Assembly: GCF_001548275.1 (NCBI RefSeq)
Contig: NZ_AP014945.1
Span: 1,320,001-1,352,000 of the forward strand
Direction: 5' to 3'
Source: Caldimicrobium thiodismutans
Lineage (GTDB): Bacteria > Desulfobacterota > Thermodesulfobacteria > Thermodesulfobacteriales > Thermodesulfobacteriaceae
Length of the DNA: 32,000 nt
Positions 3,400-25,446 of this stretch are shown here, piece by piece. The notes under the pieces are model-generated. The model had not been told where the DNA came from, did not search any database, and saw nothing but the letters and a program-made list of their open reading frames with translations. The position numbers were made by a program, and so were the translations under genes. Positions within the stretch are counted from its first letter, which is position 1. Every line of letters starts with the position of its first letter.

Positions 3400-3405
3400 C
3401 CCTTT

Positions 3406-4275
3406 TTATATTTGAGACAGGAGGTCATAGAGAAGACCTCCACCTATGGAGAGTATTAACCAGGAGAAAAGATAGTAAAGGACCACTTTTAGCGGTAAGA
3501 AGCGTAAGGAAGCTATTAAAGTAGGGACACAGATCCCACTCCCAGCCAGAACAAAGACCATGGCCTGCCCAGGGGTAAAACCAAGGTCAAGAAAGGCTTT
3601 TGCTAAAGGCACTTCCTCCCCTGAGCAAACATAAATAGGGATAGAAATGAGGGCTATCAAAAAATAAGAAAGGGAGCTTTTAGATAGAAAGGTCAATTTT
3701 TCAGGGGGTAAAAAGGTTACAAGTAGGGAGGCTATCAAGAGGCCAAGAAAAAGATATTTTCCTATCTCAAGCCCCTCTTCTTTGAAAGCAGACCACACCT
3801 TTTTAAGATTTTTTTTCTTTGGAAGGGGTTCACCTTCTGAATATTCAAGGGTCTTTTCTTTCTTTTTAAAAAGAAAAAGGGTCAAATAAGCAAGAATAAT
3901 AGAGATAAGAAAGCTAAAAATGAGTCGAAAAAGGGCAAATTTAGGCCCAAGTAATCCTAAGGTCAAAAAAATAGTTACAGGGGAAATAACCGGACCAATC
4001 ATGAGGAAGGCAAGGACTGGGGCAAAGTTAAAGGAAAAGTTGTGAATATAATAGGCTAAAGGAATCACAGAGCAAGAACAAACAGGCAAAAGGGCAGCCA
4101 GTGTCCCTGTTAAAAAGGGGGCAGATTTTTTAAGTCTTAGAACCCTGATAATAAGAGAGGTATCTAAATATACCTTTAAAAAACTTACTATAAAAAGGGC
4201 CAGAATAAAATAAGGTAAGATAGCTACACTATAATCCCAAAAATGCCATAGAAATTTAAAGAAGATTTCTTGCAT
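3406..4275 (-). CDS. Predicted permease of the ArsP/DUF318 (COG0701) type with CxC motif
   Basis: Polytopic membrane protein with the family-typical LLPVCSCSVIPLA motif. Its start abuts the stop of the upstream histidine kinase, so they share an operon. Confidence 0.7.
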   Translation of the reverse strand: MQEIFFKFLWHFWDYSVAILPYFILALFIVSFLKVYLDTSLIIRVLRLKKSAPFLTGTLAALLPVCSCSVIPLAYYIHNFSFNFAPVLAFLMIGPVISPVTIFLTLGLLGPKFALFRLIFSFLISIILAYLTLFLFKKKEKTLEYSEGEPLPKKKNLKKVWSAFKEEGLEIGKYLFLGLLIASLLVTFLPPEKLTFLSKSSLSYFLIALISIPIYVCSGEEVPLAKAFLDLGFTPGQAMVFVLAGSGICVPTLIASLRFLPLKVVLYYLFSWLILSIGGGLLYDLLSQI

Positions 4276-8451: not shown

Positions 8452-8871
8452 AAGGCCTTCCCCTTTGTAATTTTTACAAAAAAAATTATAATCTGCATTT
8501 TCATAAAGTAAAGAAAAAAAAATAGATAAATTTAAGATTTAATCTCTTGAGAAGATTTTTTTCTTGCAAAGGAATATATAATGGGCATATACATAGGTTA
8601 AATCAAAGAATTTATACAGGGGAGGCTTTACATTTAATGATAAAGGGAAACTCAAATTTATTTGCTTCCCTCCCCTCCTTTTAATTGTCAATTTTTCCCG
8701 GGAATAATTCCCTTTTTCTCTAAAAAGTCTCTCTCAGGCAATTTCTTATATTTCCGTATCTTTCTGTAAAGCTTCTTTCCTATCTACCCAGTTTTTCCTT
8801 TAATACGAGCTTTGCCAGGGGACTTAAAGTCTACCTCTCGTAAATTTAAGAGGAGCAAAATAACCTCTCTC

Positions 8872-9216
8872 TGCATAAGTTCAGATCCTTACAAGAAAAA
8901 GGAAGGGTGATAAAAGAGGAATTAGCTATCTTTACGAGGGAAGCTTTACAAGTCTGAAAGTAACACAGGCAATCTTGCCTGTGGAGGTAAATTACACTCC
9001 AATGTATGAAAGAAACACAGACAAGAATGTCTGTACTACAACAGACCCACAAAAAAATTCAAGGGGTATAAAATTTTAAACCCCTACTTAAGGAAAGATT
9101 TTGCAGATTTTTTATCCTTTCTTTCCGAAAGGGAATGGGTATGTGGAGAGATTTAATTTGTGTTCCGTCCTATGAAAAAAAATTTTTTTGAGTCTCAAAA
9201 GCTTTGGACTTATACA
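8872..9216 (+). mobile_element. MITE-like long copy (345 bp) of the Rpn-associated TIR repeat family, carries the three-hairpin cargo
   Basis: Left end TGCATAAGTTCAGATCCTTACAAGAAAAAGG, right end GAGTCTCAAAAGCTTTGGACTTATACA. The first ~215 bp are about 88-90% identical by eye to 19283-19500. Confidence 0.75.
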
Positions 9217-9222
9217 AACCTC

Positions 9223-9251
9223 TTGACTCTAAGAGAAATATTTGAAATAAT
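9223..9251 (+). promoter_or_regulatory. Putative sigma70-type promoter of the GYD gene (TTGACT-N17-AATAAT)
   Basis: -35 TTGACT at 9223-9228, 17-nt spacer, -10 AATAAT at 9246-9251, 32 nt before the ATG. Starts 6 nt after the repeat right end. Sequence-only prediction. Confidence 0.35.
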
Positions 9252-9283: not shown

Positions 9284-9571
9284 ATGGCTATTTATGTAAT
9301 TTTGAGTAAGTTAACGGATGATGGAAGGAAGACTATTAAGGAAAAGCCCCATCGTATTTTTGAAGTTAATAAGGAGCTTGAAGCTATGGGTATAAAGGTA
9401 CTTCAACAATATGCGGTTCTTGGTCCTTATGATTTTGTTAACATTGTTGAGGCTCCTGATAATGAAACGATTATGAAGATGTCTATTGAACTTGGAGCCA
9501 GGGGGACAGTTGAACTCATGAGCCTTCCTGCCCAGAGAGTGGATGACTTTTTAAAGATTATCAGTAAATAG
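9284..9571 (+). CDS. GYD domain-containing protein
   Basis: 95 aa with the family signature LGPYDFVNIVEAPD. AGGAGGGAGG RBS. Confidence 0.75.
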   Translation: MAIYVILSKLTDDGRKTIKEKPHRIFEVNKELEAMGIKVLQQYAVLGPYDFVNIVEAPDNETIMKMSIELGARGTVELMSLPAQRVDDFLKIISK

Positions 9572-10872: not shown

Positions 10873-11049
10873 TATATGGGTCCATATCTTTTGAGACTCA
10901 AGAAGATTCTTTTTACTATTTCTGTTGTTGGAAAAGGCACCTGTATTTTGTAGGGGCAAACCTTTGTGTTTGCCCTCTTTTGGCTCTCCTCCTTCACCTT
11001 TCACCTTTTACCACTCTTCCTTTTTCTTGTAAAAATCTGAACTTATGCA
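10873..11049 (-). mobile_element. MITE-like copy (177 bp) of the Rpn-associated TIR repeat family
   Basis: The - strand reads TGCATAAGTTCAGATTTTTACAAGAAAAAGGAAGAGTGGTAAAAGG...GAGTCTCAAAAGATATGGACCCATATA. Flanked on both sides by GGGGG (10868-10872 and 11050-11054). Confidence 0.7.
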
Positions 11050-11054
11050 GGGGG

Positions 11055-11798
11055 CTATAAAATAAAACTTTCTTCTCTTTCCTTTACTTCTTTGCGAGGA
11101 AGTTTCGTGATATCCTCTTTAATGGCATAAAAGACCTTAAATTTCTTCTTAAGCTGATTGAGAAGCTCCTCAGATTTTTCCTTGGGTAATTCCTCTAAGC
11201 GAATAAAGACCATTCTTTTGTGTTCGGACTGAAGTTTTTTCTGGTCATCTTCAAGAGGGAAGGCCATTTCCTCTTTCCAAGTAAGAAGGCTATATAAAGA
11301 CACCTTGAAGTCTTTAATAATGGTGAAAAGTTCAAGGAGCTCGTGGGGATGATTGATAATAAGACTTATCTGATAGGGGCTATAATATATTCCTGTTATG
11401 TTAACAAAGAGTTTAAAGATGTCTGTTTGGGTGATAATACCAACCACATAGCCTTCTCTATTAATAACCGGAAGGCCAGAGATTTTATTTTCAAGCATAA
11501 GAACGGCTGCATACTCAACGGTGTCATCAGGATAAACTGTCAGAGGGTCCTTAGTCATGATGTCTTTTAGCTTAAGCTCTGAGAGAAGATAATAGAGTTC
11601 GTGAACTTCAAAGGTAGTGATTTTAGAGGGGGTTACTTCTTTAATATCCCGGTCAGTTATAATTCCTGAAAGTTTGCCATCACGGGTAACAGGGATTCTT
11701 CTGATTTTGTGCTCTTTTAAAACCTGGACTGCTTTCATGATGGAGGTATTTTCATCAAGGGTTATTACATGCTCTGACATCCAGTCTTTAACTAACAT
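11055..11798 (-). CDS. CBS-pair domain protein with C-terminal ACT-like domain (AcuB-like)
   Basis: Two CBS repeats (…IRRIPVTRDGKLSGIITDRDI… and …ISGLPVINREGYVVGIITQTDIF…). Confidence 0.8.
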   Translation of the reverse strand: MLVKDWMSEHVITLDENTSIMKAVQVLKEHKIRRIPVTRDGKLSGIITDRDIKEVTPSKITTFEVHELYYLLSELKLKDIMTKDPLTVYPDDTVEYAAVLMLENKISGLPVINREGYVVGIITQTDIFKLFVNITGIYYSPYQISLIINHPHELLELFTIIKDFKVSLYSLLTWKEEMAFPLEDDQKKLQSEHKRMVFIRLEELPKEKSEELLNQLKKKFKVFYAIKEDITKLPRKEVKEREESFIL

Positions 11799-11824: not shown

Positions 11825-12733
11825 TTAACTTAATCCGCCGTAACTATGTAAACCGGATAAAAGAAAGTTTACACCAAAGTAAGTGAAAAGGACTGCTATA
11901 AAACCAAGAATACTAAGCCAGGCAATCTTTTTGCCCTGCCAGCCTCTAATTAAACGGGCATGAATAGCCCCGGCATAAATAAACCAGGTAATGAGGGACC
12001 AAGTTTCCTTGGGATCCCAGCTCCAGTAATTTCCCCAGGCCTGATCAGCCCAGATAGCTCCTGTAATAATACCAAGGGTTAGCCAGAAGAAACCAAAAAG
12101 GATGGTCTTATACATAAAATTATCCAGAACTGCCTTTTCAGGTAAGTGTTTCTGAAAGGTGTTGGAGCCACTAAGAAGATAAAAGATACCAACAACAAAG
12201 GCAATTCCAAAGGCAGCATACCCGAGAAAACAGGTAATCACATGAGCAATCAGCCAGTTGCTTTTAAGAGCAGGTATAAGAGGTTTTATAGATGAGTCTG
12301 TAACAAAGCTTGCAAAGGCCATAATAAGAGCAGCTAAGATGAAGACAAGACTTCCAAAGACCTTTTTAGAAAGTTTAAGCTCCCAGAAAAGATAAATACC
12401 AGCTACAGAGAGACCAAAAAAGACTAAGGATTCGTATAAATTAGAAAGAGGCACATAACCAAAACCTGTTTGATGGGTTTGAATCCACCTGAAGACAAAG
12501 GCATAAAGATTGGCCACAAAACCAGCCCAACCTATTATAGAACCCAAAAAGGCCCCCTTTTCCCAGTTAAAAATCCAGTGTATCAGATATATTATGCCAG
12601 CTAAGAGATAGATGAAAGTCACAATGCTAAAGACTAAGGCATTGTCTGGAACAAGAGTCCTTTCATTAAAGGCAAGAAATCCATAAAGCAAAAGGGCAAG
12701 GATTATTCCAAGGCTTGGAATTTTAAGGGACAT
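11825..12733 (-). CDS. ccsA: Cytochrome c assembly protein CcsA/ResC family (heme-handling W-rich motif)
   Basis: Eight-TM-type protein with WADQAWGNYWSWDPKETWSLITW (the WGxxWxWDxxE motif). Confidence 0.85.
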   Translation of the reverse strand: MSLKIPSLGIILALLLYGFLAFNERTLVPDNALVFSIVTFIYLLAGIIYLIHWIFNWEKGAFLGSIIGWAGFVANLYAFVFRWIQTHQTGFGYVPLSNLYESLVFFGLSVAGIYLFWELKLSKKVFGSLVFILAALIMAFASFVTDSSIKPLIPALKSNWLIAHVITCFLGYAAFGIAFVVGIFYLLSGSNTFQKHLPEKAVLDNFMYKTILFGFFWLTLGIITGAIWADQAWGNYWSWDPKETWSLITWFIYAGAIHARLIRGWQGKKIAWLSILGFIAVLFTYFGVNFLLSGLHSYGGLS

Positions 12734-12766: not shown

Positions 12767-12795
12767 AATATAAAACTAATTTTTAAAAATAGCAA
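12767..12795 (-). promoter_or_regulatory. Putative promoter of ccsA (TTGCTA-N17-TATATT on - strand)
   Basis: On the - strand: TTGCTA (12795-12790), 17-nt spacer, TATATT (12772-12767), 33 nt before the ATG. Starts 4 nt after the repeat right end. Sequence-only prediction. Confidence 0.35.
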
Positions 12796-12799
12796 CTCC

Positions 12800-12889
12800 T
12801 GTTTGCATCCATATCTTCTGAGACCTAATGAGGATTTTTTCCACCCTCTTTTTTTTCTTATAAAAACTTATAAAATTATGAACCTATGC
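12800..12889 (-). mobile_element. MITE-like minimal copy (~90 bp) of the Rpn-associated TIR repeat family
   Basis: The - strand reads (G)GCATAGGTTCATAATTTTATAAG...GGTCTCAGAAGATATGGATGCAAACA. This is the most diverged copy. It fills most of the rgy-ccsA intergenic space. Confidence 0.55.
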
Positions 12890-12899
12890 CCCCACACTC

Positions 12900-15800
12900 T
12901 TAAAAGGATGAGTTTAATTCTATCAAGGGTTTTAATTTCAGGCAAATTTCTTCCCATTCCTTTTCGCCCCGTTCAACAGCATCCATAAATTCTTCTAACT
13001 CCCGAGTGAAATCTTCAGAAATGTATTCCAGAAATCTTTTAGCTAAATAGGAGTAAACTTTTTTTCCCAGCGGGGTTGGCACAAGGCCTCCATTTTTGAG
13101 CTCGTATATATAGTAGCGTTGTAAAAGAGTAGATACAATTTCCGCGTATGTTGAGGGTCTTCCAAGGCCTCTTTTTTTCATTTCTTGAATTAGGCTTCCC
13201 TGATTGAAAAGAAAGACCTTGGGGACAGATCTAAGTTCTGGGTTCTCCGGGAGGCTTTCATCTTGAGGATTGAAGAGCTGGGGTTTCATCCAAAGAAGGT
13301 CAAATCCGCTTTCAAGAATTTGAAGACCTAAAGCCTCTTCCCAGCTAAAGCTTGGCACAGAAAATCTAAAGATTCCCTTTTGCAGTCGGAGAGGTTTACA
13401 CTGGGAGGCCATAAATCTCCGAAAGATGAGGTCATAGAGCCGAAAAGAGTCCTTAGGTTTTTGAAAAGTAAGTAACCCATGGGCTACTCTTAACTTTAAT
13501 TCTTTCACATCCCAGGGATAAGTTGGCCGAATGGCTTCATGCGCCCCTGTTGTTGACCACTCCCGGGGATAAAAAAAGCCTTCTCCCAGATTTTGCTCTA
13601 TATAAGGTTTAGCTACCTGATAGCGCCCTGTCTCTGAAACTCGCGTTGAGTCAGTGCGATGATAAGTTATAAGCCCGAGTTCAAAGAGTTCTTGAAGAAG
13701 GTTCATACACTGGGGGGATGAAAAGCGAAAATAATAATAAGCCTCTTCAAGGATAGTGTCTGTAGTGTAAGGGGGTGGAGGATTAATAACTTCTTCTATA
13801 CGAGAGATCTCTTCTTTTTTAAGAGAGGGCAGTTCCCTTAAGACCCTTTCTGCAAGCTCCTTATCTTCAAAGTCAAGGGCAAAGGAAAGCCCGCTAAGAG
13901 TAAAGGTCAAACGATACTTATGGGCTTTAGCCTCTTCAGCCCGTTTAATTACCCACCCAAGCACAGGGGTCTGCACCCTTCCAGCAGATAGATTTCTCTT
14001 CTTAAAGGCAGACCAGAGTTCTCGAGAAAGTGAAAAGCCTACCCATCTATCTGCAATTCTTCTGGCAAGTTGAGCCTTCACTCTGGAAAGATTAAAGGAA
14101 CCTGCTTCACTCAGGGCTTTTTTAAAAGCCCGGGGGGTAACTTCGTGAAACTCAATCCTCTTTATTTTTTTCTGAAAGGGTCTTAGATTTATATACAGGT
14201 CATAGGCAATCTTTTCTCCCTCTGAATCTGGATCTGAGGCAATAAAGGTTTCAGTGGCACAATAGGCTAAAGTGCGTAAATGTTTTATAATCTCCCCTTT
14301 ATCATAAAGTTCATCCTCTTCTTCAGTTTCTTCATCCACAATCTCATTTCCTGATTTTTTCCCAAGCTTTATAGTATCAAATAGGGGATAATAGTGTCCC
14401 TTTTGAGGGAGGACTCCAAAGATCCCCTCTTTGCGTGAAAGATTAAAGAGATGCCCTAAGGAGGCACAGACGGAAAGGAGGGTGCCTTCCATGGGAATTT
14501 CATAGACCCAGAGATTTTTAAGTCTCCTTCGGGCAGGTTTTCCAAAGAAACTGGCTATAGTTTTAGCCTTGTGAGGAGATTCTACAATAATGAGATAGTT
14601 CTTAAAATCAAGCTGACTCTCTTGAAGAGAGCTTCGCTCTTTAAGTATCCTTTGATTGATCTCTAAAACCCCATCAAGGGTAACCTTTTGAAAAGCTGGT
14701 TCCTCTCCAAGATAGAAACGAAGTCTCTTTTTAAGGCTTAAGAAGGCCTTGGGGTGATCAACAAGCATTAAGGAAATCCCGGGGAGAAGTCCTCTGGCGG
14801 TAAGTCTTGAGACCCTTCCTGAACCCTGTAAATAGACCTGAGCATTACCTACAACTACATAATACTTACCATCTTCCTTAACATCTAAAAAGACCTCATC
14901 TGACCTTTTAAGCCTTTCCATGAAGTCCTCATTGAGGAGTCGTTCTTGAATAAAATCCTTAATTTCGCTCACCCTTTTAACAAGCCCCTCATATTGGAGC
15001 AGGCTTTCTTCCTTAAGGGTTAAATATCTTTTGAGATAGTTAATGTAAGAGAGGGCTTTGAATCTCTCCTCTTCTTCGAAAAGGGGCAGTAAGTTCAAAA
15101 GTAAGTTGTGGAGAAATTGGGTGGAAAGAGGTAGTTCTAAGGTTTCACCCTTTTTACCCAGAGGAAAAAAATGCTTAGGGACTCCTAAAAAAAGGACATA
15201 ATGGAGGGCAAAGGGCAAATCAAGACCTCTTAAAAGGGGATTGCCAAGATGGGCAAGGCCAACAGCAAGATCAATCTCCTTTTCTTTTAGAAGTTCCAAA
15301 AGATCTGCTTCCTTTTCTTCCAGATAAGAGACAACCTTTAGACCTTTCTCTTTGAGATACTGAGTTGCCTTTTCGACCCCTTCTCTGCCTGCGTTTTCTT
15401 CTACAAAAAGAAGCCCCCCTGAGCCTATTTTTTGGATTATAGTATAGGCCCTTTCTAAAAGGGTCTCAAGGTTAGACTCTTCTGCCTCTAAATAGAGGTC
15501 TTCAACTCTCCTTAAGGTAGAGACAAAACGGGTAACTTCAAAACCAAGAAGGTTTTGGAAAAGAATTGTCCTGCTGGTTCTGGGTTTTAAAGTTGCAGAG
15601 GATACAATTAATCTCTTTAATTTTTTAGAGTGTTTTTCTTTAATTTTCCATAGCTTTGCATAGTCCTCCTCTTCTTTTTCCCTTTTTAGAGCCAGCTCAA
15701 TTTCTCTCTGAGAAAAACCAAGCATGTGAAAGAGGTGATCCACATTTTTCCCACTTTTTAAAAAGGAATCCACATCATCAACAAAAATAAGAGAAAAATC

Positions 15801-16394
15801 TGCCATTTTGAGAAGTTCATAGTTTTTATGGAAAAAGGCCTGGGTGCAAATAAAAATGTCAAAGCTCTTTTCTTCAAGGAGTCTTTTTTCCTGATTTGAA
15901 CCAGTATAGGAAAGGATCCGGCGAGTTTTTATCTCTTCAAAAGAGGTCTTTTCCTGTAAATCCTGAAGTCTTTCATAAAGATGATTAACAAGGACTTTGG
16001 TTGGGACAAGGATTAAGGATTTTTCTCTATGCAAGAGACAGGCTAAAAGTCCAAAGGTGGTTTTACCTGTTCCAGTAGGAGCAACAATGGCAAAGGATTC
16101 ACCAAGGAAAAACCTTTTGGCCCAGCTTAGTTGAAGAGAGGAGGGGGCTATTCCAAAAATCTCCTGAAAGACTCGGTGAAATTGATAAACCTCCTTTTCA
16201 ACTCTTCCAAAGAGTTTTAAATCTCTAAGCTTTTTATTTTTTTCTAAGGCCTGGATTGCTTCTTCAAGGGTAAGATCCCCTTTTAAAAAGGTCTTTTCAG
16301 ATAGACATTTTTCGCAAGGGAGCCCCAGAGAAAGCCTTTCATCAGAGATACGCCCCCCACAATTAGGACACCCATGAGCTATATAAAAAAGCAT
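12900..16394 (-). CDS. rgy: Reverse gyrase (helicase-like domain fused to type IA topoisomerase)
   Basis: N-terminal zinc ribbon CPNCGG...CEKC, Walker A APTGTGKTT, FVDDVD, Toprim IIVESPHKAKTIA and ASDPDSEGEKIAYD, topo IA active-site ITYHRTDS. 1164 aa. Confidence 0.97.
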   Translation of the reverse strand: MLFYIAHGCPNCGGRISDERLSLGLPCEKCLSEKTFLKGDLTLEEAIQALEKNKKLRDLKLFGRVEKEVYQFHRVFQEIFGIAPSSLQLSWAKRFFLGESFAIVAPTGTGKTTFGLLACLLHREKSLILVPTKVLVNHLYERLQDLQEKTSFEEIKTRRILSYTGSNQEKRLLEEKSFDIFICTQAFFHKNYELLKMADFSLIFVDDVDSFLKSGKNVDHLFHMLGFSQREIELALKREKEEEDYAKLWKIKEKHSKKLKRLIVSSATLKPRTSRTILFQNLLGFEVTRFVSTLRRVEDLYLEAEESNLETLLERAYTIIQKIGSGGLLFVEENAGREGVEKATQYLKEKGLKVVSYLEEKEADLLELLKEKEIDLAVGLAHLGNPLLRGLDLPFALHYVLFLGVPKHFFPLGKKGETLELPLSTQFLHNLLLNLLPLFEEEERFKALSYINYLKRYLTLKEESLLQYEGLVKRVSEIKDFIQERLLNEDFMERLKRSDEVFLDVKEDGKYYVVVGNAQVYLQGSGRVSRLTARGLLPGISLMLVDHPKAFLSLKKRLRFYLGEEPAFQKVTLDGVLEINQRILKERSSLQESQLDFKNYLIIVESPHKAKTIASFFGKPARRRLKNLWVYEIPMEGTLLSVCASLGHLFNLSRKEGIFGVLPQKGHYYPLFDTIKLGKKSGNEIVDEETEEEDELYDKGEIIKHLRTLAYCATETFIASDPDSEGEKIAYDLYINLRPFQKKIKRIEFHEVTPRAFKKALSEAGSFNLSRVKAQLARRIADRWVGFSLSRELWSAFKKRNLSAGRVQTPVLGWVIKRAEEAKAHKYRLTFTLSGLSFALDFEDKELAERVLRELPSLKKEEISRIEEVINPPPPYTTDTILEEAYYYFRFSSPQCMNLLQELFELGLITYHRTDSTRVSETGRYQVAKPYIEQNLGEGFFYPREWSTTGAHEAIRPTYPWDVKELKLRVAHGLLTFQKPKDSFRLYDLIFRRFMASQCKPLRLQKGIFRFSVPSFSWEEALGLQILESGFDLLWMKPQLFNPQDESLPENPELRSVPKVFLFNQGSLIQEMKKRGLGRPSTYAEIVSTLLQRYYIYELKNGGLVPTPLGKKVYSYLAKRFLEYISEDFTRELEEFMDAVERGEKEWEEICLKLKPLIELNSSF

Positions 16395-16460
16395 CTCCCC
16401 TCCTATTTTGATGTTGCCCCTTTATCTTAGAGGATTTTTTCTTTTTTCCAAGGGGATTAA

Positions 16461-17504
16461 CTCCTTATTTTTACAGGGAAATCTATAAGTTCATATCCTT
16501 ACAAGAAACCTCCCATTCCCTATGACCTTTTTGCCAAGGCCTTCCTCAAAGACCCTGAAAACTTAAAAGGCTTCCTCTTAACCTTCCTCCCTGATCACAT
16601 TAAAACTCATCTTGACCTTGACTCCCTTAAAATCATCCCTGAAGAACAAGTTTCTCTTTCAAGAAAAAAGCGAGAAATCCCGGACCTTGTTGCTGAGGTT
16701 AATCTTCTTAGTGAAGGGAAACCTTCAACCAAAGCCCATCTCTATATCCTTATTGAGCACAAAAGTGCACCTGATAAAAGGATTTATCTTCAGATTTTAA
16801 ATTACATAACCGCATTAAATGAGAGGTCTCTCAAGGAGGGGAAGGGGTATGTGCCTGTTTTACCTCTTGTGTTTTATGAAGGGGATAAGCCCTGGGTGTA
16901 TCCTGAAAGGATAGAGGAGATATTTTCAGTGCCAGAGGGGTTAAAGGGAGAACTTTTTAAGGTTCATGTGGTAGATTTAAAGAGGGTAGAGGATGAGAAG
17001 ATACTGGAGGTATTTGATATTTTAGCAGGGCTTGGGTGTTATCTTTATTTAATGAAGGTGGAAGCAGGTAATTTTGAAGAGATGATAGATATGGTGGTAA
17101 GAGCGGTAAATAGGTTAATTGCGATAGGGGAGAAGGGGAGGTGGGAGATAGGGTTTTTAATTACGATATCTGAAATAAAGTTTAGGGTTGACGGGGAGGT
17201 AATCTGGTTTAATATATTAGATAGGTGTGGAGAAGAGGGGGTAAAGATGGAGTTAAAGAGCTTTTGGGATAGAGTGGGAGAGAAGTTTTATAAGCAGGGA
17301 ATTGAGCAGGGGAAATATCAGGGGTTAATTGAGGAGGCAAGGGAGCTTGTGCTTGAGGCCATAGAGGTGAAGCTTGGGTATGTGCCTGAGGAAGTGAGGG
17401 AGAGGGTGGTAAGGGAAGAGGATAGAGGAGTTCTTAAAGCGTGGCATAGAGAAATAATTCTTGCCAAGGGTTCCGAAGATATCTTTAAACTCTTTGAAAA
17501 TTGA
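16461..17504 (+). CDS. Rpn family recombination-promoting nuclease / putative transposase (Transposase_31, PD-(D/E)XK N-domain plus DUF4351-like C-terminal helices); start codon unresolved, possibly a pseudogene
   Basis: The frame is open from 16461 (after TAA at 16458-16460). N-terminal PYDLFAKAFLKDPENLKGFL...PDLVAEV...YILIEHKS matches the Rpn motifs (HDxxFK; D...IEHQS). C-terminal FYKQGIEQGKYQGLIEEARELVLEAIEVKLGYVPEEVRERV is typical of the family. The first ATG/GTG/TTG in frame is GTG at 16851. Confidence 0.75.
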   Translation, partial: LLIFTGKSISSYPYKKPPIPYDLFAKAFLKDPENLKGFLLTFLPDHIKTHLDLDSLKIIPEEQVSLSRKKREIPDLVAEVNLLSEGKPSTKAHLYILIEHKSAPDKRIYLQILNYITALNERSLKEGKGYVPVLPLVFYEGDKPWVYPERIEEIFSVPEGLKGELFKVHVVDLKRVEDEKILEVFDILAGLGCYLYLMKVEAGNFEEMIDMVVRAVNRLIAIGEKGRWEIGFLITISEIKFRVDGEVIWFNILDRCGEEGVKMELKSFWDRVGEKFYKQGIEQGKYQGLIEEARELVLEAIEVKLGYVPEEVRERVVREEDRGVLKAWHREIILAKGSEDIFKLFEN

Positions 17505-17622
17505 TAATTTTATAAATTTTTTTAACCTATCTAACTTTATCTGCAAAAATCGGTGGCACTGATCTACCAAAAGAGATAGATTTGAGTTTCAAAAGATATG
17601 GACGCATACAGGCTATTGACAA
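16482..17622 (+). mobile_element. Full-length (1141 bp) member of the TIR repeat family, encoding the Rpn/YhgA-like PD-(D/E)XK protein
   Basis: Left end TCTATAAGTTCATATCCTTACAAGAAA and right end GAGTTTCAAAAGATATGGACGCATACA match the ends of the five short copies. The interior is the rpn-like reading frame plus about 90 bp. Confidence 0.6.
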
Positions 17623-17660
17623 AATATAAAAGGGGGGTTATTTTTTATATAATCTTTTGG

Positions 17661-17735
17661 GGCCGTAGCTCAGAGGGAGAGCGCGTGAATGGCATTCACG
17701 AGGTCGAGGGTTCAAGTCCCTCCGGCTCCACCATT
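17661..17735 (+). tRNA. tRNA-Ala (anticodon GGC), CCA encoded
   Basis: Cloverleaf folds by hand. Acceptor GGGGCCG/CGGCTCC with the G3:U70 alanine identity pair. Anticodon stem CGTGA/TCACG with loop ATGGCAT. T-arm GAGGG-TTCAAGT-CCCTC. Confidence 0.95.
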
Positions 17736-17749
17736 TAAGGAACTAATAT

Positions 17750-17953
17750 ATGTCTCAGGATAAAGTAATCCCCATAGAAAAAAAGTTTTCTTCAAACCCT
17801 CAGGCTAATCTATCCCCTTTAGAAGAAACGGTCCTTCGCACAACCAAGGAAATTGTCATTAAATTTATTGAAATGGGAAGATGCTCTCCAGCAACCTTTG
17901 AAGAGGTTTTTACCCTCGTCCATTCAGTTATTAAGAAAACAGTCCTTAAGTAA
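17750..17953 (+). CDS. Hypothetical small protein (67 aa), translationally coupled to the downstream flavoprotein
   Basis: AAGGA RBS. Its stop overlaps the next start (TAATG). No family recognised. Confidence 0.4.
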   Translation: MSQDKVIPIEKKFSSNPQANLSPLEETVLRTTKEIVIKFIEMGRCSPATFEEVFTLVHSVIKKTVLK

Positions 17954-18561
17954 TGAAAATTTTAGCTATTCATGGAAGTCCAAGACTTGGTGGAAATACA
18001 GATCATCTTTTAACCTTTTTACTGGAAGGCGTTAAGGCCTCGCAGGGAGAATTTGAAAGAATAAATCTTTATGAGCTTAAATTTTCACCCTGTATAGAGT
18101 GTGGTGAGTGTGATCATTTAGGTGAATGTATTTTGCAAGATGATATGCAGTTTCTTTATCAAAAGTACCTGGAAGCAGATTTGCTTGTTGTAGCAACTCC
18201 TATCTTTTTTTATTCTCACACCTCTATGGTTCAGGCCTTTTTTGAGAGATTTCAGGCCTTTTGGGCCAGGAAATACAGATTGGGCCTTCCTCATCCTCAG
18301 GGAAAGAATCCCCGTGGAATACTCCTTTCTCTTGGTGCTACAAAGGGGAAAAAGATCTTTGAAGGCGTTATCCGCACCTTTAAATATGTGATGGATGCAG
18401 GCTGGGGCGCCTATGTGGGAGGGCTTTTTTTTAGAGAGATAGATAAAAAGGGCGAGATCCTTAAATATCCAGAGATCCTTGATAAGGCAAGAGAGCTTGG
18501 AAAAGAGTTAATTCTCTTACCTGAAGATAAATGGTCTCTTGATAGGAACCCTACACCCTAA
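17953..18561 (+). CDS. Iron-sulfur flavoprotein / NADPH-dependent FMN reductase family (Isf-like)
   Basis: Flavodoxin-like N-terminus MKILAIHGSPRLGGNT plus a compact Cys cluster CIECGECDHLGEC, as in Isf-type proteins. Confidence 0.8.
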   Translation: MKILAIHGSPRLGGNTDHLLTFLLEGVKASQGEFERINLYELKFSPCIECGECDHLGECILQDDMQFLYQKYLEADLLVVATPIFFYSHTSMVQAFFERFQAFWARKYRLGLPHPQGKNPRGILLSLGATKGKKIFEGVIRTFKYVMDAGWGAYVGGLFFREIDKKGEILKYPEILDKARELGKELILLPEDKWSLDRNPTP

Positions 18562-19208
18562 ATTTTTCTATACTTTCTGAAAAGCTCAGTATAACCCCTT
18601 GCTCTATCTTCAATATCTCTGGCAAGCCAGATATCACTTATTACAGCTAAAAGATCAGCTCCAAGTTTTATCAGCTCTTCGGCTTGCTCAAGGGTTATTC
18701 CTCCAATGGCACACACCGGAATTTTAAGCTCTTTTTTGGCCTGAAGAAGGATTTCCTTTGAAACAAGCGCTGATGCTGGCTTAGTGGGAGAGGGGAAAAA
18801 ACTTCCAAAGGCTACATAACTTGCTCCAAGGGCTTCAGCTCTTTTAGCTCTCTCCAGATCACCGTAACAGGAGACCCCTATAATTTTATCAGGAAGAGCT
18901 ACCTTAACTCTTTCAAGGGCTTCATCTTCTATACCTAAGTGAACCCCATCAGCTTCTACCCCTTTAGCAAGTTTAACTCTATCATTGACTATAAAAAGGG
19001 CTTGGTATTGATGACAGAGTTTCTTTAATTGAAGAGCAACCTCCAAGAGCTCCTCATCAGTATGAGTTTTATCTCTAAGCTGAACTACCTTTGCTCCACC
19101 TTTCAATGCAGACTCAACACACTTAAAAATTTTTTCTCCCTCATAGGGGGTGAGTTTTTCATCAGTAATTACATAAAGGCCAAATAGTTTTGTTTTTTCC
19201 CTTTCCAT
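18558..19208 (-). CDS. thiE: Thiamine-phosphate synthase
   Basis: LYVITDE..., VVQLRDK, GVHLG, GGI motifs. Start reassigned to the ATG at 19208 (MEREKTKLFGLYVITDE), because the 47-aa upstream extension of the ORF track is a translation of the repeat element. Confidence 0.9.
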   Translation of the reverse strand: MEREKTKLFGLYVITDEKLTPYEGEKIFKCVESALKGGAKVVQLRDKTHTDEELLEVALQLKKLCHQYQALFIVNDRVKLAKGVEADGVHLGIEDEALERVKVALPDKIIGVSCYGDLERAKRAEALGASYVAFGSFFPSPTKPASALVSKEILLQAKKELKIPVCAIGGITLEQAEELIKLGADLLAVISDIWLARDIEDRARGYTELFRKYRKI

Positions 19209-19282
19209 GGGACTAATCTTAAACCTTATTCCCAAAAAAGAAAAGAGCTTTTTTCTAAAGTTATTCTTTATGGACAAACCGC

Positions 19283-19531
19283 TGCATAAGTTCAGATCAT
19301 TACAAGAAAAAAGGAAGGGTAGTAAAAGGGGAATTAGATATCTATACAAGGGAGGCTTTACAAGTCTGAAAGTAACACAGGCAATCTTGCCTGTAAAAGT
19401 TAATTACACTCCAATGTATGAAAGTAACACAGACAAGAATGTCTGTGCTACAAGAGACCCACAAAAAAATTCAAGGGGTTTAAAATTTTAAACCCCAACT
19501 ATTTAAGTCTCAAAAGACCTGAACGCATACA
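19283..19531 (+). mobile_element. MITE-like long copy (249 bp) of the Rpn-associated TIR repeat family, carries the three-hairpin cargo
   Basis: Left end TGCATAAGTTCAGATCATTACAAGAAAAAAGG, right end AAGTCTCAAAAGACCTGAACGCATACA. Close paralogue of 8872-9216. Confidence 0.75.
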
Positions 19532-19536
19532 AACCC

Positions 19537-19565
19537 TTGGAATTTTTGAGAGAAGGATTAATAAT
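19537..19565 (+). promoter_or_regulatory. Putative promoter of ribBA (TTGGAA-N17-AATAAT)
   Basis: -35 TTGGAA at 19537-19542, 17-nt spacer, -10 AATAAT at 19560-19565, 29 nt before the ATG. Starts 5 nt after the repeat right end. Sequence-only prediction. Confidence 0.35.
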
Positions 19566-19594
19566 TATTAAAAAAATTTAATGGAGGACATGGG

Positions 19595-20797
19595 ATGCCT
19601 ATTTCTACTGTTGAGGCAGCTCTGGAGGATTTAAAAGCAGGAAAAATGATAATTGTGGTAGATGATGAGGATCGGGAAAATGAAGGAGACCTTGTCTTAC
19701 CAGCGGAGAAGGTAACTCCAGAAGCCATTAACTTTATGGCTATGTATGGAAGAGGACTTATTTGTCTTGCCATTGCACCAGAGATTGCTGAACGCCTTCA
19801 GCTCCAGCTTCAACCCAGAAGAGGGATAGACCCCTATGGAACAGCCTTTACTGTCTCTATTGATGCCCGGGAGGGTATTACTACTGGTATTTCTGCCTTT
19901 GATAGGGCCCATACCATTAAACTTGTCATAGATGAAAGAAGCAAACCCGAAGATTTTGTAACTCCAGGTCATATCTTTCCTATTATTGCCAGAAAAGGAG
20001 GGGTTTTGGTTAGGGCCGGGCATACTGAGGCAGCGGTAGATCTTGCCAGAATTTGTGGAATGAAACCAGCAGGGGTTATCTGTGAAATCATGAAGGATGA
20101 CGGAACTATGGCCAGACTTCCAGATCTTGAAAAATTTGCCGAGACCTGGGGGCTTAAAATCACAACCATTAGGGATCTTATTGCCTACCGGTTGAGAAAG
20201 GAGACCATGGTTAAGCGAGAGGTTGAAACTATTCTACCTACACCCTATGGCACTTTCAAACTTATTGCCTATAGCAATCTTGTAGATTCCGCAACCCATG
20301 TGGCTTTGGTTCTGGGGGAAATCACAGATGAGCCTGTGTTAGTAAGGGTTCATTCTGAGTGCCTCACAGGGGATGTCTTTGGTTCCCTCAGATGTGATTG
20401 TGGCCCACAATTAAAAAAAGCTATGGAGTATATTGCCAAAGAGGGAAGAGGAGTTCTGCTCTATCTGAGGCAGGAAGGCCGTGGAATTGGACTTTTGAAT
20501 AAACTTAAGGCCTATAATCTTCAAGATCAGGGCTTAGATACAGTTGAGGCCAATCTTGCCCTTGGTTTTAAACCAGATCTCAGAGACTATGGGATTGGAG
20601 CTCAGATCCTAAGAGATCTGGGTGTTAAGAAAATTAGACTCATGACCAACAATCCCCGTAAGATTGTTGGCCTTGAGGGATATGGAATGCAGGTAGTTGA
20701 AAGAGTTCCCATTGAGGTTACCCCGGTTAGAGAAAACTGGAATTATTTGCGCACAAAGAAGGAAAAGCTGGGACACCTCCTTTCCTGTTTAAGGTAA
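19595..20797 (+). CDS. ribBA: Bifunctional 3,4-dihydroxy-2-butanone-4-phosphate synthase / GTP cyclohydrolase II
   Basis: DHBP synthase motif [13 protein letters not shown] and [11 protein letters not shown] cyclohydrolase II motif [21 protein letters not shown]. Confidence 0.95.
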
Positions 20798-20806
20798 TCC
20801 CTTTTT

Positions 20807-22390
20807 ATGCCACACTCCTTTAAGAGCCTTCTTAAGGAAAGAGATTTTCTCTTTACCTTTGAACTTGTGCCAGGCAGAAGTGTTCGCACAAGACATTATC
20901 AAGAAATCTTAAGATTTCTTGAGGAGAGCACGAATCTTAAGATCTTTCAGGCCTTTTCAATTACCGATAATGCAGGAGGGCATCCAGCCTTATCTCCTAT
21001 CCCTTTAGGAAGGACAATTAAAGAATTTGGCCTTGAACCTATCATTCATTTTTCTTGCAAGGATAAGAACCGAAATCAGCTTGAAAGTGAGCTTTTGGCC
21101 TTGGATAGGGAAGGTCTCCACAACCTGCTTGTCCTCACTGGTGATTATCCCTTTTACGGATACTTAGGCCGAGCTAAACCGGTTTTTGATCTGGACTCTG
21201 TTTTACTCTTAAAGATGATAACTGATATGGAGAGTGGGATAGAGCTTCCCAGAGGGGCTCCAGGGGGAGGGGTCAGACTCCCTGGTATCCCCTTTTTTAA
21301 AGGGGCAGTTGTTAATCCCTTTAAGCTAACTCTCTCAGAACTCTGGTGGCAATATCTAAAACTTTATAAAAAACTTCAGGCTGGAGCTTATTTCATTATA
21401 ACTCAGGTAGGCTTTTATCCAAGAAAATGGTTAGAATTGAAAAATCTCCTTGAACTTGGTATTACAAAAATCTTTTCCCAATTTCTTAAGGACCAGAGCC
21501 TTCATGAGCCTGAAAAGGATAAAACCTTTGAAAGGGTGCCTCTTATTGGAAGTGTTCTCTATCTTACTCCTCAGCTTTTAAGGGCCTTAAAAAAGGGGAG
21601 AATTCCAGGTATTTTTGTGACTGAGGATCTTTTGAGGAGATTGGAGAAAGCCTCTTCCTTTGAGGAAGGGGCTCTGGAGATCTCTGCTGAGCTTACAGCT
21701 ATACTTAAGGGCCTTGGCTATAAAGGGGTTCATCTCTGTGGTTTCCCCCTGGACTATAAGCTCATAGAGGCCTTTCTTGAAAAGGTCTCTAAGTATGAGA
21801 CTAAGTGGGAGGGCTCTTTTGAAGAGCTGGGAAATACCGCCCTTATTGAACTTCCTCAAGGGGTCTATCAAAGGGAGATACCCTGTTTACTGAAAAATGG
21901 CTTTGATTTAAGATTTGAAGGTAAAAAGAGCCTTTTTTACCTTTTTAATGAGGCTATGCATCGCCTTTTTTTTAACAGAGGAAACTTTCTTTATCCCTAT
22001 CTCCAAAAAGTAGCTCAATTCTTAGACAGATATCCCCGCTTAAAGGGCTATTTTACCTCCCTTGAATATTTCATTAAGAAACTTCTTTTTAATTGTCAGG
22101 AGTGTGGAGATTGCACCCTTTGGGAGTTCAATTATGCTTGTCCCCAGAGTGGATGTGCTAAGTATCTTTTAAATGGTCCTTGTGGAGGGAGTTTAGCTGG
22201 TTTTTGTGAGGTCTATCCCTTTGTCAAAAAATGTCACTTTGTAAGGGCAATGGAAAGAGCTCCCTCCCAAAGGGAACTTAAAAAATTTATAAAATCTTAT
22301 CTTCCCCCAAGGGACTGGGCCCTTTATAAAAGTTCCTCCTGGCTTAATTTTTTTCTTAGAAGGGATCACACTAAGGATGAAACAATTTGA
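20807..22390 (+). CDS. Methylenetetrahydrofolate reductase (MetF-like) fused to a MetV-type Cys-rich C-terminal domain
   Basis: N-terminal MTHFR pattern FTFELVPGRS...SITDNAGG...HFSCKD...LLVLTGDYP. C-terminal CQECGDCTLWEFNYACPQSGCAKYLLNGPCGGS, the NGPCGG signature of the MTHFR_C/MetV domain. Confidence 0.75.
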   Translation: MPHSFKSLLKERDFLFTFELVPGRSVRTRHYQEILRFLEESTNLKIFQAFSITDNAGGHPALSPIPLGRTIKEFGLEPIIHFSCKDKNRNQLESELLALDREGLHNLLVLTGDYPFYGYLGRAKPVFDLDSVLLLKMITDMESGIELPRGAPGGGVRLPGIPFFKGAVVNPFKLTLSELWWQYLKLYKKLQAGAYFIITQVGFYPRKWLELKNLLELGITKIFSQFLKDQSLHEPEKDKTFERVPLIGSVLYLTPQLLRALKKGRIPGIFVTEDLLRRLEKASSFEEGALEISAELTAILKGLGYKGVHLCGFPLDYKLIEAFLEKVSKYETKWEGSFEELGNTALIELPQGVYQREIPCLLKNGFDLRFEGKKSLFYLFNEAMHRLFFNRGNFLYPYLQKVAQFLDRYPRLKGYFTSLEYFIKKLLFNCQECGDCTLWEFNYACPQSGCAKYLLNGPCGGSLAGFCEVYPFVKKCHFVRAMERAPSQRELKKFIKSYLPPRDWALYKSSSWLNFFLRRDHTKDETI

Positions 22391-23681
22391 TTTAAAGATT
22401 GAGAAAATGGTCTTTGGTGGAGAGGGGCTGGGTAGATCCTCCTCAGGTAAAGTTGTCTTTGTGCCTTATACCCTTCCGGGGGAACTTGTAAGGGTTGGTA
22501 TTTATGAGGAATACAGGGACTACGCAAGGGGAATGGTGCTTGAGGTCCTTGAGGCCTCCCCTCATAGGATAAATCCTCCTTGTAGGTATTACGGACTATG
22601 CGGAGGCTGTCAATTTCAACATGCAACCTACGAGGAGGAGTTAAGAATCAAGGAAAGAGTCCTGAAAGACCTCTTTTTTCGTCAAGGCTATAAGAGGGAG
22701 ATCCCCTTAAGGGGTATTATACCATCTGAGAAAATCTATCATTATAGAAATAGGTTGAGACTCCATGTAGAGAATCATATTCTTAAGATGGGTTTTGTAA
22801 AAAAGGGCACTCACGAGGTCTTAAAGATTGAAGAGTGCCTTCTTGGAGAGGATATCCTGAATGAGCTTCTAAAAGAGCTATATGCAGAGTCCCCCTGGAT
22901 AAATATGGCTTTTTACATTAAGAGAATAAAGCTTGAGAGTTCTCCCTTAGATGGAAAGGCAACCCTTCTTTTCTGGACCTCCCTCTCACCCCGTAGAGAG
23001 GAGTTAGAGCAACTTTGTAAATTAAAAACCCTTAAAAGCATCTTTTATCTTATGAAAGGTGCTCGGCCTGTTGGCCCATTTCCTGAAGATGCTCCTTTTG
23101 CAGGAAGAAGACTTTTTGCCTCTCTTTCAGGCCTTATCTATTATATTCAGCCCGGGGTATTTACTCAGACCAACTGGGAAATAAATCTAAAGATTATGCA
23201 AAAGATTGGTGAGCTTACTCAAGGGACTGAACGAATCCTTGACCTTCACTCTGGTATGGGAAATTTTCTCATACCCCTGGTTAAGGGAAACCCATCAGCT
23301 AAGGCATTCTTAGGAGTTGATACAGATATTAGAGCCATTGAAGATGGACTTTTTACTGCGGAGAAAAACAATTTAGATGGAAGGCTTGAATTGAGAAGGA
23401 TGAGTGCTATGGAAGCCCTTTATGAAGCAGTTCAATCCGGGGAGAAATATGACCTTGTGCTCCTTGACCCGCCCCGAGGAGGCTGTAAAGAACTTTTGAG
23501 ACTCCTTCCTGATGTGGCTGAGGACAAAATCCTTTATCTCTCCTGTGACGCCCCCACCCTTGTTAGGGATATAATCCTTCTTGAAAAGGCTGGTTTTACT
23601 CTTTCTGAGATCTATCTTTTTGACATGTTTCCAAGGACTTATCATTTTGAGGTTCTTGCCCTTCTTCAAAAGATAAATTAA
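22377..23681 (+). CDS. 23S rRNA (uracil-C5)-methyltransferase, RlmD/RumA family (TRAM plus [4Fe-4S] plus SAM MTase)
   Basis: Cluster motif CRYYGLCGGCQFQH. SAM-MTase motifs LDLHSGMGNF, LLDPPRGG, YLSCDAPTLVRD. The start overlaps the metF-like stop by 14 nt. Confidence 0.85.
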   Translation: MKQFDLKIEKMVFGGEGLGRSSSGKVVFVPYTLPGELVRVGIYEEYRDYARGMVLEVLEASPHRINPPCRYYGLCGGCQFQHATYEEELRIKERVLKDLFFRQGYKREIPLRGIIPSEKIYHYRNRLRLHVENHILKMGFVKKGTHEVLKIEECLLGEDILNELLKELYAESPWINMAFYIKRIKLESSPLDGKATLLFWTSLSPRREELEQLCKLKTLKSIFYLMKGARPVGPFPEDAPFAGRRLFASLSGLIYYIQPGVFTQTNWEINLKIMQKIGELTQGTERILDLHSGMGNFLIPLVKGNPSAKAFLGVDTDIRAIEDGLFTAEKNNLDGRLELRRMSAMEALYEAVQSGEKYDLVLLDPPRGGCKELLRLLPDVAEDKILYLSCDAPTLVRDIILLEKAGFTLSEIYLFDMFPRTYHFEVLALLQKIN

Positions 23682-24429
23682 GAGGTTTGCCAAGGGCCCA
23701 GAGGAATTGCCTGCAGAATCCCATAATTATTTTAACTTCCCTGGATGTAAGTTCCCTTGAGGTTAGAAATCTTCTAATGTTTGTAAGCCAGAGAATAGGA
23801 TTTTGATGGGGCATATAGTCAATGACTTTTAAGGTAGCCTCAATGAGCTTAAACATGGTATTTATTTCTTTCTGGGTGGCAAGTTCAGGTTTTTTAAGTT
23901 TCAATCCAGAGGTAGCATCTTGAAAGATCTCATATAGAATTATAACTACCGCTTGGGAGACATTTAGAGAGGCCTTTTCTGTAGTGGGTATGGTGATAAC
24001 CTTGTCACAATAAAAGAGGTCTTCGTTACTAAGGCCTAAGCGCTCGTTTCCAAAAAGAATGGCTATGCGATTATTTAAGGAAAGCTCGCAAAGCTCCTTA
24101 GAAATCTCCTTTGGTGTATGATAAACCAATCTTCTTTTTCCAAGTCTGGCAGTGGTTCCTACAACTACATTGAAGTCTTTAAGGGCAGAGGGAAGATCCT
24201 TAAAGATCCGCATTTTATCAAGAATGTGCTTACCTGTATTGGTAGCCATAGCATACATAGGAAGAGGGGTTAAGTCTTCAGGATTTACAAGGAGGAGCTC
24301 TTCAATTCCAAAGTTTGCACAGGCTCTGGCTACAGAGCCTATGTTTTCAGGATAAAGGGGGTTAACTAAAATAACGGAAATATTTGTAAGATTTGCCCTT
24401 TTAGGCTTAGCAACCGGTCTTACTTGCAT
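23596..24429 (-). CDS. SpoU/TrmH-family RNA 2'-O-methyltransferase (TrmJ-like)
   Basis: Motifs ENIGSVARACANFG, ILFGNERLGLS, ITIPT...SLNVSQAVVIILYE. Confidence 0.85.
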   Translation of the reverse strand: MQVRPVAKPKRANLTNISVILVNPLYPENIGSVARACANFGIEELLLVNPEDLTPLPMYAMATNTGKHILDKMRIFKDLPSALKDFNVVVGTTARLGKRRLVYHTPKEISKELCELSLNNRIAILFGNERLGLSNEDLFYCDKVITIPTTEKASLNVSQAVVIILYEIFQDATSGLKLKKPELATQKEINTMFKLIEATLKVIDYMPHQNPILWLTNIRRFLTSRELTSREVKIIMGFCRQFLWALGKPLNLSFEEGQEPQNDKSLETCQKDRSQKE

Positions 24430-24516
24430 AATTAGGTTTCACGAATTTTATTCCCCTTTTTGTAGAAGTTAAAACTTAATTAATCATCTGGATAAAGTCA
24501 AGTCTGGGGGTCTTTT

Positions 24517-25218
24517 CCCAAATTTGCCGATAGAAATTTTAAAATTTAGATACTATCCAGCTTTGCTCTTCTTTTGCTCTTTCAGTTATCCATTGAGGGA
24601 ATTTTTATGCTCTTTTACCAGTCTTTTACAATGTTTTATCTCATCTAATCAGCCTCTACCCCTTTAATCTTCTCAATTTTGCCTGTTTTAAAAAACACTA
24701 CCCCCTCCTATTCCTTCCATCTCAATCTCAGTTCTTTGTTATTTATCCCTTTTATCCTGATAATTCTGCATGCCTGAGCCTTATCTTTTTATAAAGTATA
24801 AACTTCTCTACCTCTGCATATATCTTCAGACACAGCCTCCGGGCATGTTTTACTACCTTGCCAGCTACCTCTATGAAAATCCATCTTATGCTCTGAATTG
24901 TCTTTGTCCTCATAGACTCCGGTAATACAAAATACTTCTTCATGCCTGTGAGTTTCCTTAGTCCTCTATTATCTCCCTCAACTCTTCTATGTGTCTGCCA
25001 CCTCCTATAAGCATAAATAATATAGGCTCTATATAATGCCATGCCTTGTATCCCCTGTTTGAACCAGGCTCTGGCATATGCCTCTCCATGGCATCCTTTA
25101 TCCCAAAGGACCTTAAAAACTCTGACCAGATGGCTACTGGGTGATATTATATCATCCAGAAATCTAAATACAAAAGGAGGCTTTTGGATTTTTGATTGTT
25201 TCTATCGGCAAATTAGGG
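24517..25218 (-). mobile_element. Internally deleted IS remnant (IS1380-family-like) bounded by inverted repeats
   Basis: Perfect 16-bp inverted repeat AATTTGCCGATAGAAA at 24521-24536 and its complement at 25199-25214, extending to 19/20 as CCC(A/T)AATTTGCCGATAGAAA. The ends begin CC, as recalled for IS1380-family IRs. Only about 700 bp long. Confidence 0.5.
24752..25201 (-). pseudogene. Truncated DDE transposase fragment (C-terminal part, IS1380/IS4-like)
   Basis: The frame is open from inside the right IR. The C-terminal TIQSIRWIFIEVAGKVVKHARRLCLKI resembles the conserved C-terminal helix of IS1380/IS4-type transposases. It is far too short for an intact enzyme. Confidence 0.45.
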
Positions 25219-25444: not shown

Positions 25445-25446
25445 GG

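Follow-up and report, generated by a model that had tools for sequence, protein, structure and literature searches.

Here we describe a family of non-autonomous inverted-repeat transposable elements (miniature inverted-repeat transposable elements, MITEs) in a 32,000-nucleotide stretch of the Caldimicrobium thiodismutans chromosome (NZ_AP014945.1, positions 1,320,001 to 1,352,000; hereafter ‘the window’), and we conclude that its members very probably undergo orientation-specific, targeted insertion at the upstream edge of sigma-70-type promoters. An earlier note on the window had remarked on the polar placement of the repeat, with left ends shortly after stop codons and right ends shortly before -35-like hexamers; this observation is confirmed, extends to other loci of the lineage and is stronger than first stated.

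Copies of the family (family 1) are 90-350 bp long, non-coding (only spurious open reading frames, ORFs, are called inside them) and numerous (24 right ends per ~139 kb). As expected of MITEs, they combine terminal inverted repeats with target-site duplication and presence/absence polymorphism. The terminal repeats are imperfect and begin TG...CA: the left terminus reads (nnn)TGCATAAGTTCAGATCCTTACAAGAAAAAGGAAGGGTGGTAAAAGG and the right terminus GAGTCTCAAAAGATATGGACGCATACA, and when aligned by eye from the TG onwards, the left end TGCATAAGTTCAGATCCTTACAAG and the reverse-complemented right end TGTATGCGTCCATATCTTTTGAGA agree at about 15 of 24 positions. The interiors are divergent and define subfamilies; copies of subfamily A/B are 90-95% alike in a star-like pattern, which fits a burst of transposition. 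Six members (A-F) lie in the window, and together with the promoter-like sites next to them they are as follows (here and below, a slash separates the bases that follow a right end from the hexamer):

3288-3402, minus strand: copy C; left end 3 nt past the permease stop codon, right end abutting a MITE of a second family (family 2)
8869-9216, plus strand: copy A; 348 bp, recently inserted and lacking in two near-identical strains
8862-8868 and 9217-9223: duplication AACCTCT flanking copy A, from the alignment with strains L124 and L125
9223-9251, plus strand: GYD promoter-like site TTGACT-N17-AATAAT, host sequence that is the same in the empty site
10873-11052, minus strand: copy D; left end 2 nt past the CBS stop codon, right end followed by CCCCC/TTTTAA, with no TTG
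12800-12893, minus strand: copy E; short and degenerate, with the reverse gyrase stop codon on one side and the ccsA promoter on the other
12795-12767, minus strand: ccsA promoter-like site (TTGCTA 12795-12790, N17, TATATT 12772-12767), 4 nt past the right end of copy E
16481-16508, plus strand: left-end fragment of copy F; 26-28 nt, fused to codon 4-5 of an Rpn-family gene
17576-17610, plus strand: right end of copy F, followed by GGCTA, TTGACA (17616-17621)-N17-TATTTT (17616-17644) and tRNA-Ala
19280-19531, plus strand: copy B; right end followed by AACCC
19537-19565, plus strand: ribBA promoter-like site TTGGAA-N17-AATAAT, after copy B

Each end of copy E has three mismatches to the family, and nhmmer finds matches at both. 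The claim that this copy is essentially the whole rgy-ccsA intergenic region was overstated, as it fills 94 of the 166 intergenic bases. All four promoter-like sites proposed earlier exist, 6, 5, 4 and 5 nt past the element ends at 9216, 19531, 12800 and 17610, respectively; for the TTGACA near tRNA-Ala the 5-nt spacing was right, and the position is 17616-17621 rather than 17628.

Direct evidence of mobility comes from copy A. Searching with the CcsA protein, we found the same region in two further strains, L124 from a JGI hot-spring metagenome and L125 from a Logan assembly, which are 99.4-99.7% identical to the window and differ from it over ~15 kb by a single insertion or deletion, namely copy A. 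The empty site reads ...ATAACCTCT/TGACTC... and, out to the GYD start codon, ...GCAAAATAACCTCT/TGACTCTAAGAGAAATATTTGAAATAATAATT...ATG(GYD), here with the slash at the insertion point, and the filled site reads ...AACCTCT(348 bp)AACCTCT TGACTC..., the two copies of the duplication agreeing at 7/7 bases. The element is thus mobile, and its insertion made a 7-bp duplication. Since TTGACT-N17-AATAAT already precedes the GYD gene in the empty site, the GYD promoter is host DNA. The short stretch that separates the right end from the hexamer is duplicated target, and the final T of the duplication doubles as the initial T of TTGACT. At copies G, H, N5 and D the duplications match at 6/7 positions each. 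Site-specific recombination at a TTGAC core was considered and ruled out: the left junction of copy A lacks TTGAC, and the duplicated bases vary among copies.

The fixed position of the right end emerges from a sample of ~139 kb of non-redundant DNA of the same lineage, the window included, which was gathered via Rpn paralogues and via contigs encoding ‘proteins’ gene-called inside repeat copies. Among its 24 non-redundant right ends, 20 have TTG 4-6 nt beyond the last element base, 17 of them at exactly 5 nt, and 12 have TTGAC. With intergenic frequencies of 0.0185 for TTG and 0.0009 for TTGAC, the corresponding binomial probabilities are ~1e-19 and ~1e-23; in the window alone, TTG follows at 4-6 nt in four of the six copies (P = 1.2e-4). 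The hexamers also come with a second box: xAxxxT is present 16-18 nt past the hexamer in 19/20 cases as compared to 29% of all intergenic TTG sites (P = 9e-10), and the eight of 20 targeted hexamers that are not TTGAC nevertheless have a -10 box. In the column profile of the right ends conservation continues up to the last element base, falls to ~0 bits at +1 to +4, shows a weak C, and returns as TTG at +6 to +8. Left ends served as the control: TTG occurs within 9 nt outward in only 2/16 flanks, neither time with a -10 box. A generic promoter scan (43 sites as against 35 +/- 5 expected) is uninformative on its own. The genes behind these promoters are diverse, as illustrated by eight of the right-end flanks:

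GGCTA/TTGACA: tRNA-Ala
TTATC/TTGACA: tRNA-Ser
ACCTC/TTGACA: tRNA-Met/Cys
AAAAA/TTGACA-N17-TATAAT: DUF488
TTTTC/TTGACA: rimP-nusA
TTTTC/TTGACA: serS
GGGGG/TTGACA: rplU
ATACA/TTGACA: bioY

Copies occupy about one in three of the intergenic TTGACn-N16-18-xAxxxT sites sampled, and the promoters of five of the six tRNA transcription units. The sole sampled unit without a copy is tRNA-Phe (window 25406-25455), whose TTGACT-N16 site (window 25444, minus strand) comes directly after a GC-rich hairpin, GGGCAAATAGATTTGCCC, past the hemerythrin gene. At three loci the start codon is only 41-43 nt past the right end (rimP, L147 15111-15152; serS, L157 17116-17157; a radical-SAM gene, L156 10171-10214), that is, ~7 nt past the predicted -10 box, which would make these mRNAs leaderless or nearly so.

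The outward -35 box of IS1, IS2, IS257 and ISAba1 lies inside the element, and the right end studied here could likewise carry or complete an outward (hybrid) promoter, as in IS1, IS2 and ISAba1, its copies being kept because they drive the downstream gene; that the right end might contribute to promoter activity had been one of the options in the earlier note. The right end does always point towards a gene start with a promoter-like site behind it, the flanks of copies A and B are alike over ~50 nt (family D2), and the position of the element end just upstream of the neighbour’s promoter is a genuine likeness to these insertion sequences. However, the -35 box here is host sequence that predates insertion and is not part of the conserved end: the whole promoter is there in the empty site of copy A, conservation ceases at the last element base with the 5 nt beyond it unconserved, and the hexamer, the spacer and the -10 box vary among copies. 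Moreover, tRNA and ribosomal-protein operons need promoters of their own in any case. We regard a promoter-supplying right end as very unlikely, although the right end may act as an upstream (UP-like) promoter sequence.

Polarity is as strict as spacing. Every one of the 24 right ends points towards the beginning of a gene or tRNA in the same orientation, all of the tandem intergenic copies (8/8) are oriented in this way, and no copy in the sample lies between convergent genes. In three divergent regions two copies are arranged back to back (J/K, N8/N2 and N6/N10), with one right end at each of the two promoters. Divergent regions account for about half of the copies (e.g. A, B, G, H and I), and left ends there are 95-550 nt from the nearest gene. 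The left ends of tandem copies, by comparison, follow the upstream stop codon at 2 nt (D), 3 nt (C), 6 nt (E), ~6 nt (P) and ~27 nt (N4). The genes of the window that are involved are:

3406-4275: ArsP_1 permease gene, stop codon 3406-3408
9284-9571: GYD protein gene
11055-11798: CBS protein gene, stop codon 11055-11057
11825-12733: CcsA gene, ccsA start at 12733
12900-16394: reverse gyrase gene
12900-12902, minus strand: reverse gyrase stop codon, 6 nt before the start of copy E and 10 nt before GCAT
17659-17733: tRNA-Ala
19595-20797: RibBA gene

The names of these genes, the three stop codons (3406-3408, 11055-11057 and 12900-12902 in the ORF list) and the starts of the left terminus (T)GCAT at 3399, 11049 and 12889 are all as the earlier note had them. 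An Rfam search of the window returned two tRNAs and nothing else. When the element and one copy of the duplication are removed, the -35 box comes to lie about 7-32 nt past the upstream stop; the pre-insertion spacers of C and E measure ~57-66 nt, that of E (~66 nt) being nearly all promoter and leader. The closeness of left ends to stop codons thus follows from the right-end rule and compact spacers, and is a secondary effect. Of the three explanations in the earlier note, the suggestion that the element targets the gap between terminators and promoters comes closest, in that a gap is targeted; the anchor is the -35 hexamer, at a fixed 5 nt and in one orientation, and not a terminator-to-promoter gap. 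Half of the copies occupy divergent regions, where the upstream gene is not co-oriented, and terminators play no part.

It had also been proposed that the element is retained because its hairpin-forming ends serve as a 3' untranslated region (UTR) or terminator of the upstream gene. While three window copies start only 2-6 nt past a stop codon and pairing of the terminal repeats is possible at the RNA level (copy C, z = -3.3), the upstream gene is divergent for roughly half of the copies. Folding z-scores range from -0.3 to -3.3, and copies E (z = -1.1 and -0.3) and I (z = -0.6) fold like shuffled sequence. All five terminator-like hairpins in copies A, B and D are on the antisense strand, and no sense-strand hairpin is followed by a U-tract. 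A role as 3' UTR or terminator is therefore highly improbable, the least probable of the explanations considered. The antisense hairpin-plus-T-run sites (window 8964-9037 in A, 10953-10976 in D and 19376-19496 in B) would stop transcription arriving from the side of the downstream gene rather than from the upstream one.

Could the pattern instead result from random insertion, followed by survival of only those copies that spare genes, promoters and UTRs and so end up in the slot between a stop codon and the next promoter? Intergenic space is scarce, as the short pre-insertion spacers of C and E illustrate, and purifying selection must clear insertions within genes. Such selection explains the exclusion from genes; it explains neither why 17/24 ends fall at exactly 5 nt nor why a single orientation is used. 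In divergent regions several hundred bases long (A, G and I) the copies still take the 5-nt position, and the young, polymorphic copy A already obeys the spacing rule. While random insertion with selective survival is therefore unlikely, it is less so than the two functional explanations above, and we infer that the spacing reflects target choice and not selection.

A second MITE family, unrelated to family 1 and with the ends CGAATTGCCTCATTAAAAA and CGTAATGCCTCATTTAATTT, is placed in a similar way. One copy lies in the window at 3080-3287, between the right end of copy C and GATAC/TTGTCA (3074-3069); the others are a relic at window 8655-8862 and copies at L147 12147-12490, L148 10771-11090 and L157 4456-4709. 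In three of four copies a TTG hexamer with a -10-like box begins 5, 6 and 4 nt beyond the GGCAATTCG end; in the fourth, TTTCTT-N16-TATAAT takes this place at 5 nt. Family 2 often abuts or interrupts family-1 copies, indicating that elements pile up just upstream of promoters.

We propose the following mechanism for targeted insertion of family 1. A transposase encoded elsewhere would bind the two unlike element ends and capture the target such that the right end, always turned towards the promoter, attaches 5 bp ahead of the -35 hexamer through a cut staggered by 7 bp; this cut would span 5 (sometimes 4 or 6) bases before the -35 box plus the first 1-3 bases of the hexamer, usually TT. The inserted right end would then be followed by ~5 host bases and by the host TTGnnn-N16-18-TAnnnT. 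With the core promoter left intact, the site would be a safe landing place, and between the tandem gene pairs of a compact genome the element would fill the short gap from stop codon to -35 box. The hexamer could be found either by direct reading of TTGACA-like sequence or via promoter-bound RNA polymerase/sigma. It is possible, though we hold it only tentatively, that the machinery reads promoters as such, through bound RNA polymerase/sigma-70 or through a sigma-region-4-like module, and, with that as its ruler, cuts 5 bp ahead of the -35 box in a single orientation. The eight non-TTGAC hexamers with good -10 boxes and the like placement of family 2 favour recognition of the promoter as such; selection could also produce both the bias towards non-TTGAC hexamers with -10 boxes and the shared placement.

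Several points weigh against targeted insertion or limit its reach. Four of the 24 right ends (C, N3, D and Lp) break the spacing rule. For two of these a family-2 MITE abuts the right end and a promoter-like site lies beyond it (GATAC/TTGTCA(3074-3069)-N16-TAAAAT before the NapC/NirT cytochrome gene for C; TGACCT/TTGAAA-N16-TAATAT for N3), so C and N3 probably obeyed the rule before the second element came; D (CCCCC/TTTTAA) and Lp, a partial right end in L148 with TTGAAA at 8 nt, have no such excuse. There is one empty site, which documents the insertion event once, and among old copies the left boundary of the duplication shifts by 0-4 nt. The promoters at the right ends are predicted from sequence, and the survey covers ~140 kb picked for Rpn genes or MITE-derived ORFs. 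Selection against harmful insertions surely shapes the survival of copies as well. Finally, no autonomous copy or transposase with family-1 ends was found in the ~139 kb sample. Wider scans were no more productive: the degenerate pattern ATAARTTCANATYNTTACAA gave 120 chance matches in unrelated taxa across a genome collection (L001-L120), and two tighter patterns gave 0 matches and 20 unrelated matches, respectively, in a metagenome collection that holds no relatives.

A close parallel in mode of insertion is the IS1202 family (ISAjo2-like), which targets dif/pdif: its members are reported to have imperfect terminal inverted repeats and to occur in one orientation at a fixed 5-bp distance from a defined protein-binding site (PMC10132070). 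Fixed distance, single orientation and imperfect inverted repeats are shared with family 1, and the IS1202 family differs in being an autonomous 1.5-kb insertion sequence with a known transposase and the XerC side of dif as its target. The repeat studied here, by contrast, sits at promoters, is seen only as non-autonomous copies and makes a 7-bp duplication. Fixed distance and fixed orientation are also what characterises selector-guided transposons, and family 1 shows both (17/24 right ends at 5 nt), a likeness that concerns the mode of insertion and not membership.

Through its TnsD pathway Tn7 likewise inserts at attTn7 in one orientation and at a fixed distance, in a harmless intergenic spot, with target duplication. 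The Tn7 site is a single chromosomal one downstream of glmS and the duplication is 5 bp, whereas family 1 occupies many sites, each a different promoter; we know of no selector protein for it. Ty3 of yeast and TRE5-A of Dictyostelium recognise the place where the transcription machinery docks and insert a fixed short distance upstream of genes, often tRNA genes, which stay functional. These are eukaryotic retroelements that rely on Pol III factors, unlike the bacterial DNA element and sigma-70-type promoters considered here, although a machinery that reads promoters as such would be a bacterial counterpart of Ty3-type targeting. Elements of the IS200/IS605 family and their MITEs (e.g. ISDra2, with target TTGAT) insert in strict orientation next to a short motif, without inverted repeats or duplication. 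They abut the motif directly, and the inverted repeats, 7-bp duplication and 5-nt offset of family 1 do not fit that class. Nor does family 1 fit among the REP/BIME, ERIC and Correia-type repeats, which are short, abundant and intergenic, often follow stop codons and form RNA hairpins in 3' UTRs: unlike these repeats, family 1 has neither the 3' UTR bias nor the structure and is anchored to promoters.

Targeted transposition in bacteria is known for a few special sites, namely attTn7, dif, REP sequences and guide-RNA targets. Our full-text literature searches returned no bacterial element described as homing to the -35 box of ordinary promoters with single-base precision, and to our knowledge there is none that homes to ordinary -35 boxes. 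If the targeting that we propose is real, it represents a new way for a genome parasite to find a safe haven in a thermophile whose genome is very compact, and raises the question of whether a transposase can read sigma-bound DNA. In an organism without transcription start site data the repeat would be a natural promoter marker, its right end pointing to a -35 box 5 nt away, and it might be put to use for integration close to promoters. The repeat also affects annotation, since a number of gene starts and small ‘hypothetical proteins’ of the lineage are artefacts of it. Cases lie at window 19207-19491, L124 6073-6252 and L156 2999-3970: ‘hypothetical proteins’ called inside MITE copies include THC_1342 and THC_0226, and the annotated start of at least one real gene has been extended into a right end.

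Copy F encloses a gene of the Transposase_31/Rpn family (YhgA-like), which raised the possibility of a transposase encoded by the element itself. Upstream of 16851 this gene (window 16461-17504) lacks any ATG, GTG or TTG: the MITE left end, joined at the microhomology AAGAAA, has taken the place of its first codons, and the annotated product, THC_1337, begins at the internal GTG at 16851 (ORF 16851-17504). Its paralogues begin MSKKKPPVPYDLF, and THC_1337 is probably a pseudogene. Copy F, listed in the earlier note as a full copy, is less likely to be an autonomous element than a composite of this pseudogene, a left-end fragment fused to it and an independent right end at the tRNA-Ala promoter. 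We also rejected the Rpn gene as the element’s own transposase, given that intact copies are not bounded by both ends: intact Rpn copy X (L147 10001-10999, 332 aa) has neither a left nor a right end, and another Caldimicrobium species (P0007 locus, L149-L154) has the Rpn gene and no copy of the repeat. At L126, what resembles an Rpn gene between two right ends is in fact an Rpn gene preceded by a whole MITE (H) in inverted orientation.

Rpn remnants or genes precede right ends in L148 and N2 (L155), and Rpn and PDDEXK_10 genes lie between or beside ends in F, N2 and P. At L157 15833-17116, a 1.28-kb segment has its left end 6 nt past a radical-SAM stop codon and its right end 5 nt before the serS -35 box. 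Between these ends lies a frameshifted coiled-coil/DUF3782/PDDEXK_10 nuclease gene, and the segment may be either a single element carrying a gene or a gene with a decayed MITE on each side. The element may be connected with PD-(D/E)XK nuclease genes. Since about one quarter of promoters are occupied, such juxtapositions of genes and ends may be due to chance. The divergent region between the reverse gyrase and Rpn genes is also where gene orientation turns from mostly minus to mostly plus (window ~14000-17000) and where the cumulative GC skew has its minimum; it may be a replication landmark.

Two differences between assemblies involve loci described above. JGI contig 000531 (L126 1-11031), compared with window 16503-24516 and with L147, joins rpoB-rpoC-rpsO-tRNA-Ser-Rpn copy X to the downstream side of F (tRNA-Ala), and in the NCBI metagenome-assembled genome an alcohol dehydrogenase gene follows copy X; either recombination between Rpn copies has rearranged the region or the join is an assembly chimera that spans the repeat. 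Elsewhere, window 24517-24879 (363 unrelated bases) is replaced in the JGI strain (L121 1554-3740) by ~2.2 kb containing MITE copy G, two DUF488 genes and a DuOB gene, and the breakpoint of this strain-specific replacement lies ~16 nt before the left end of G.

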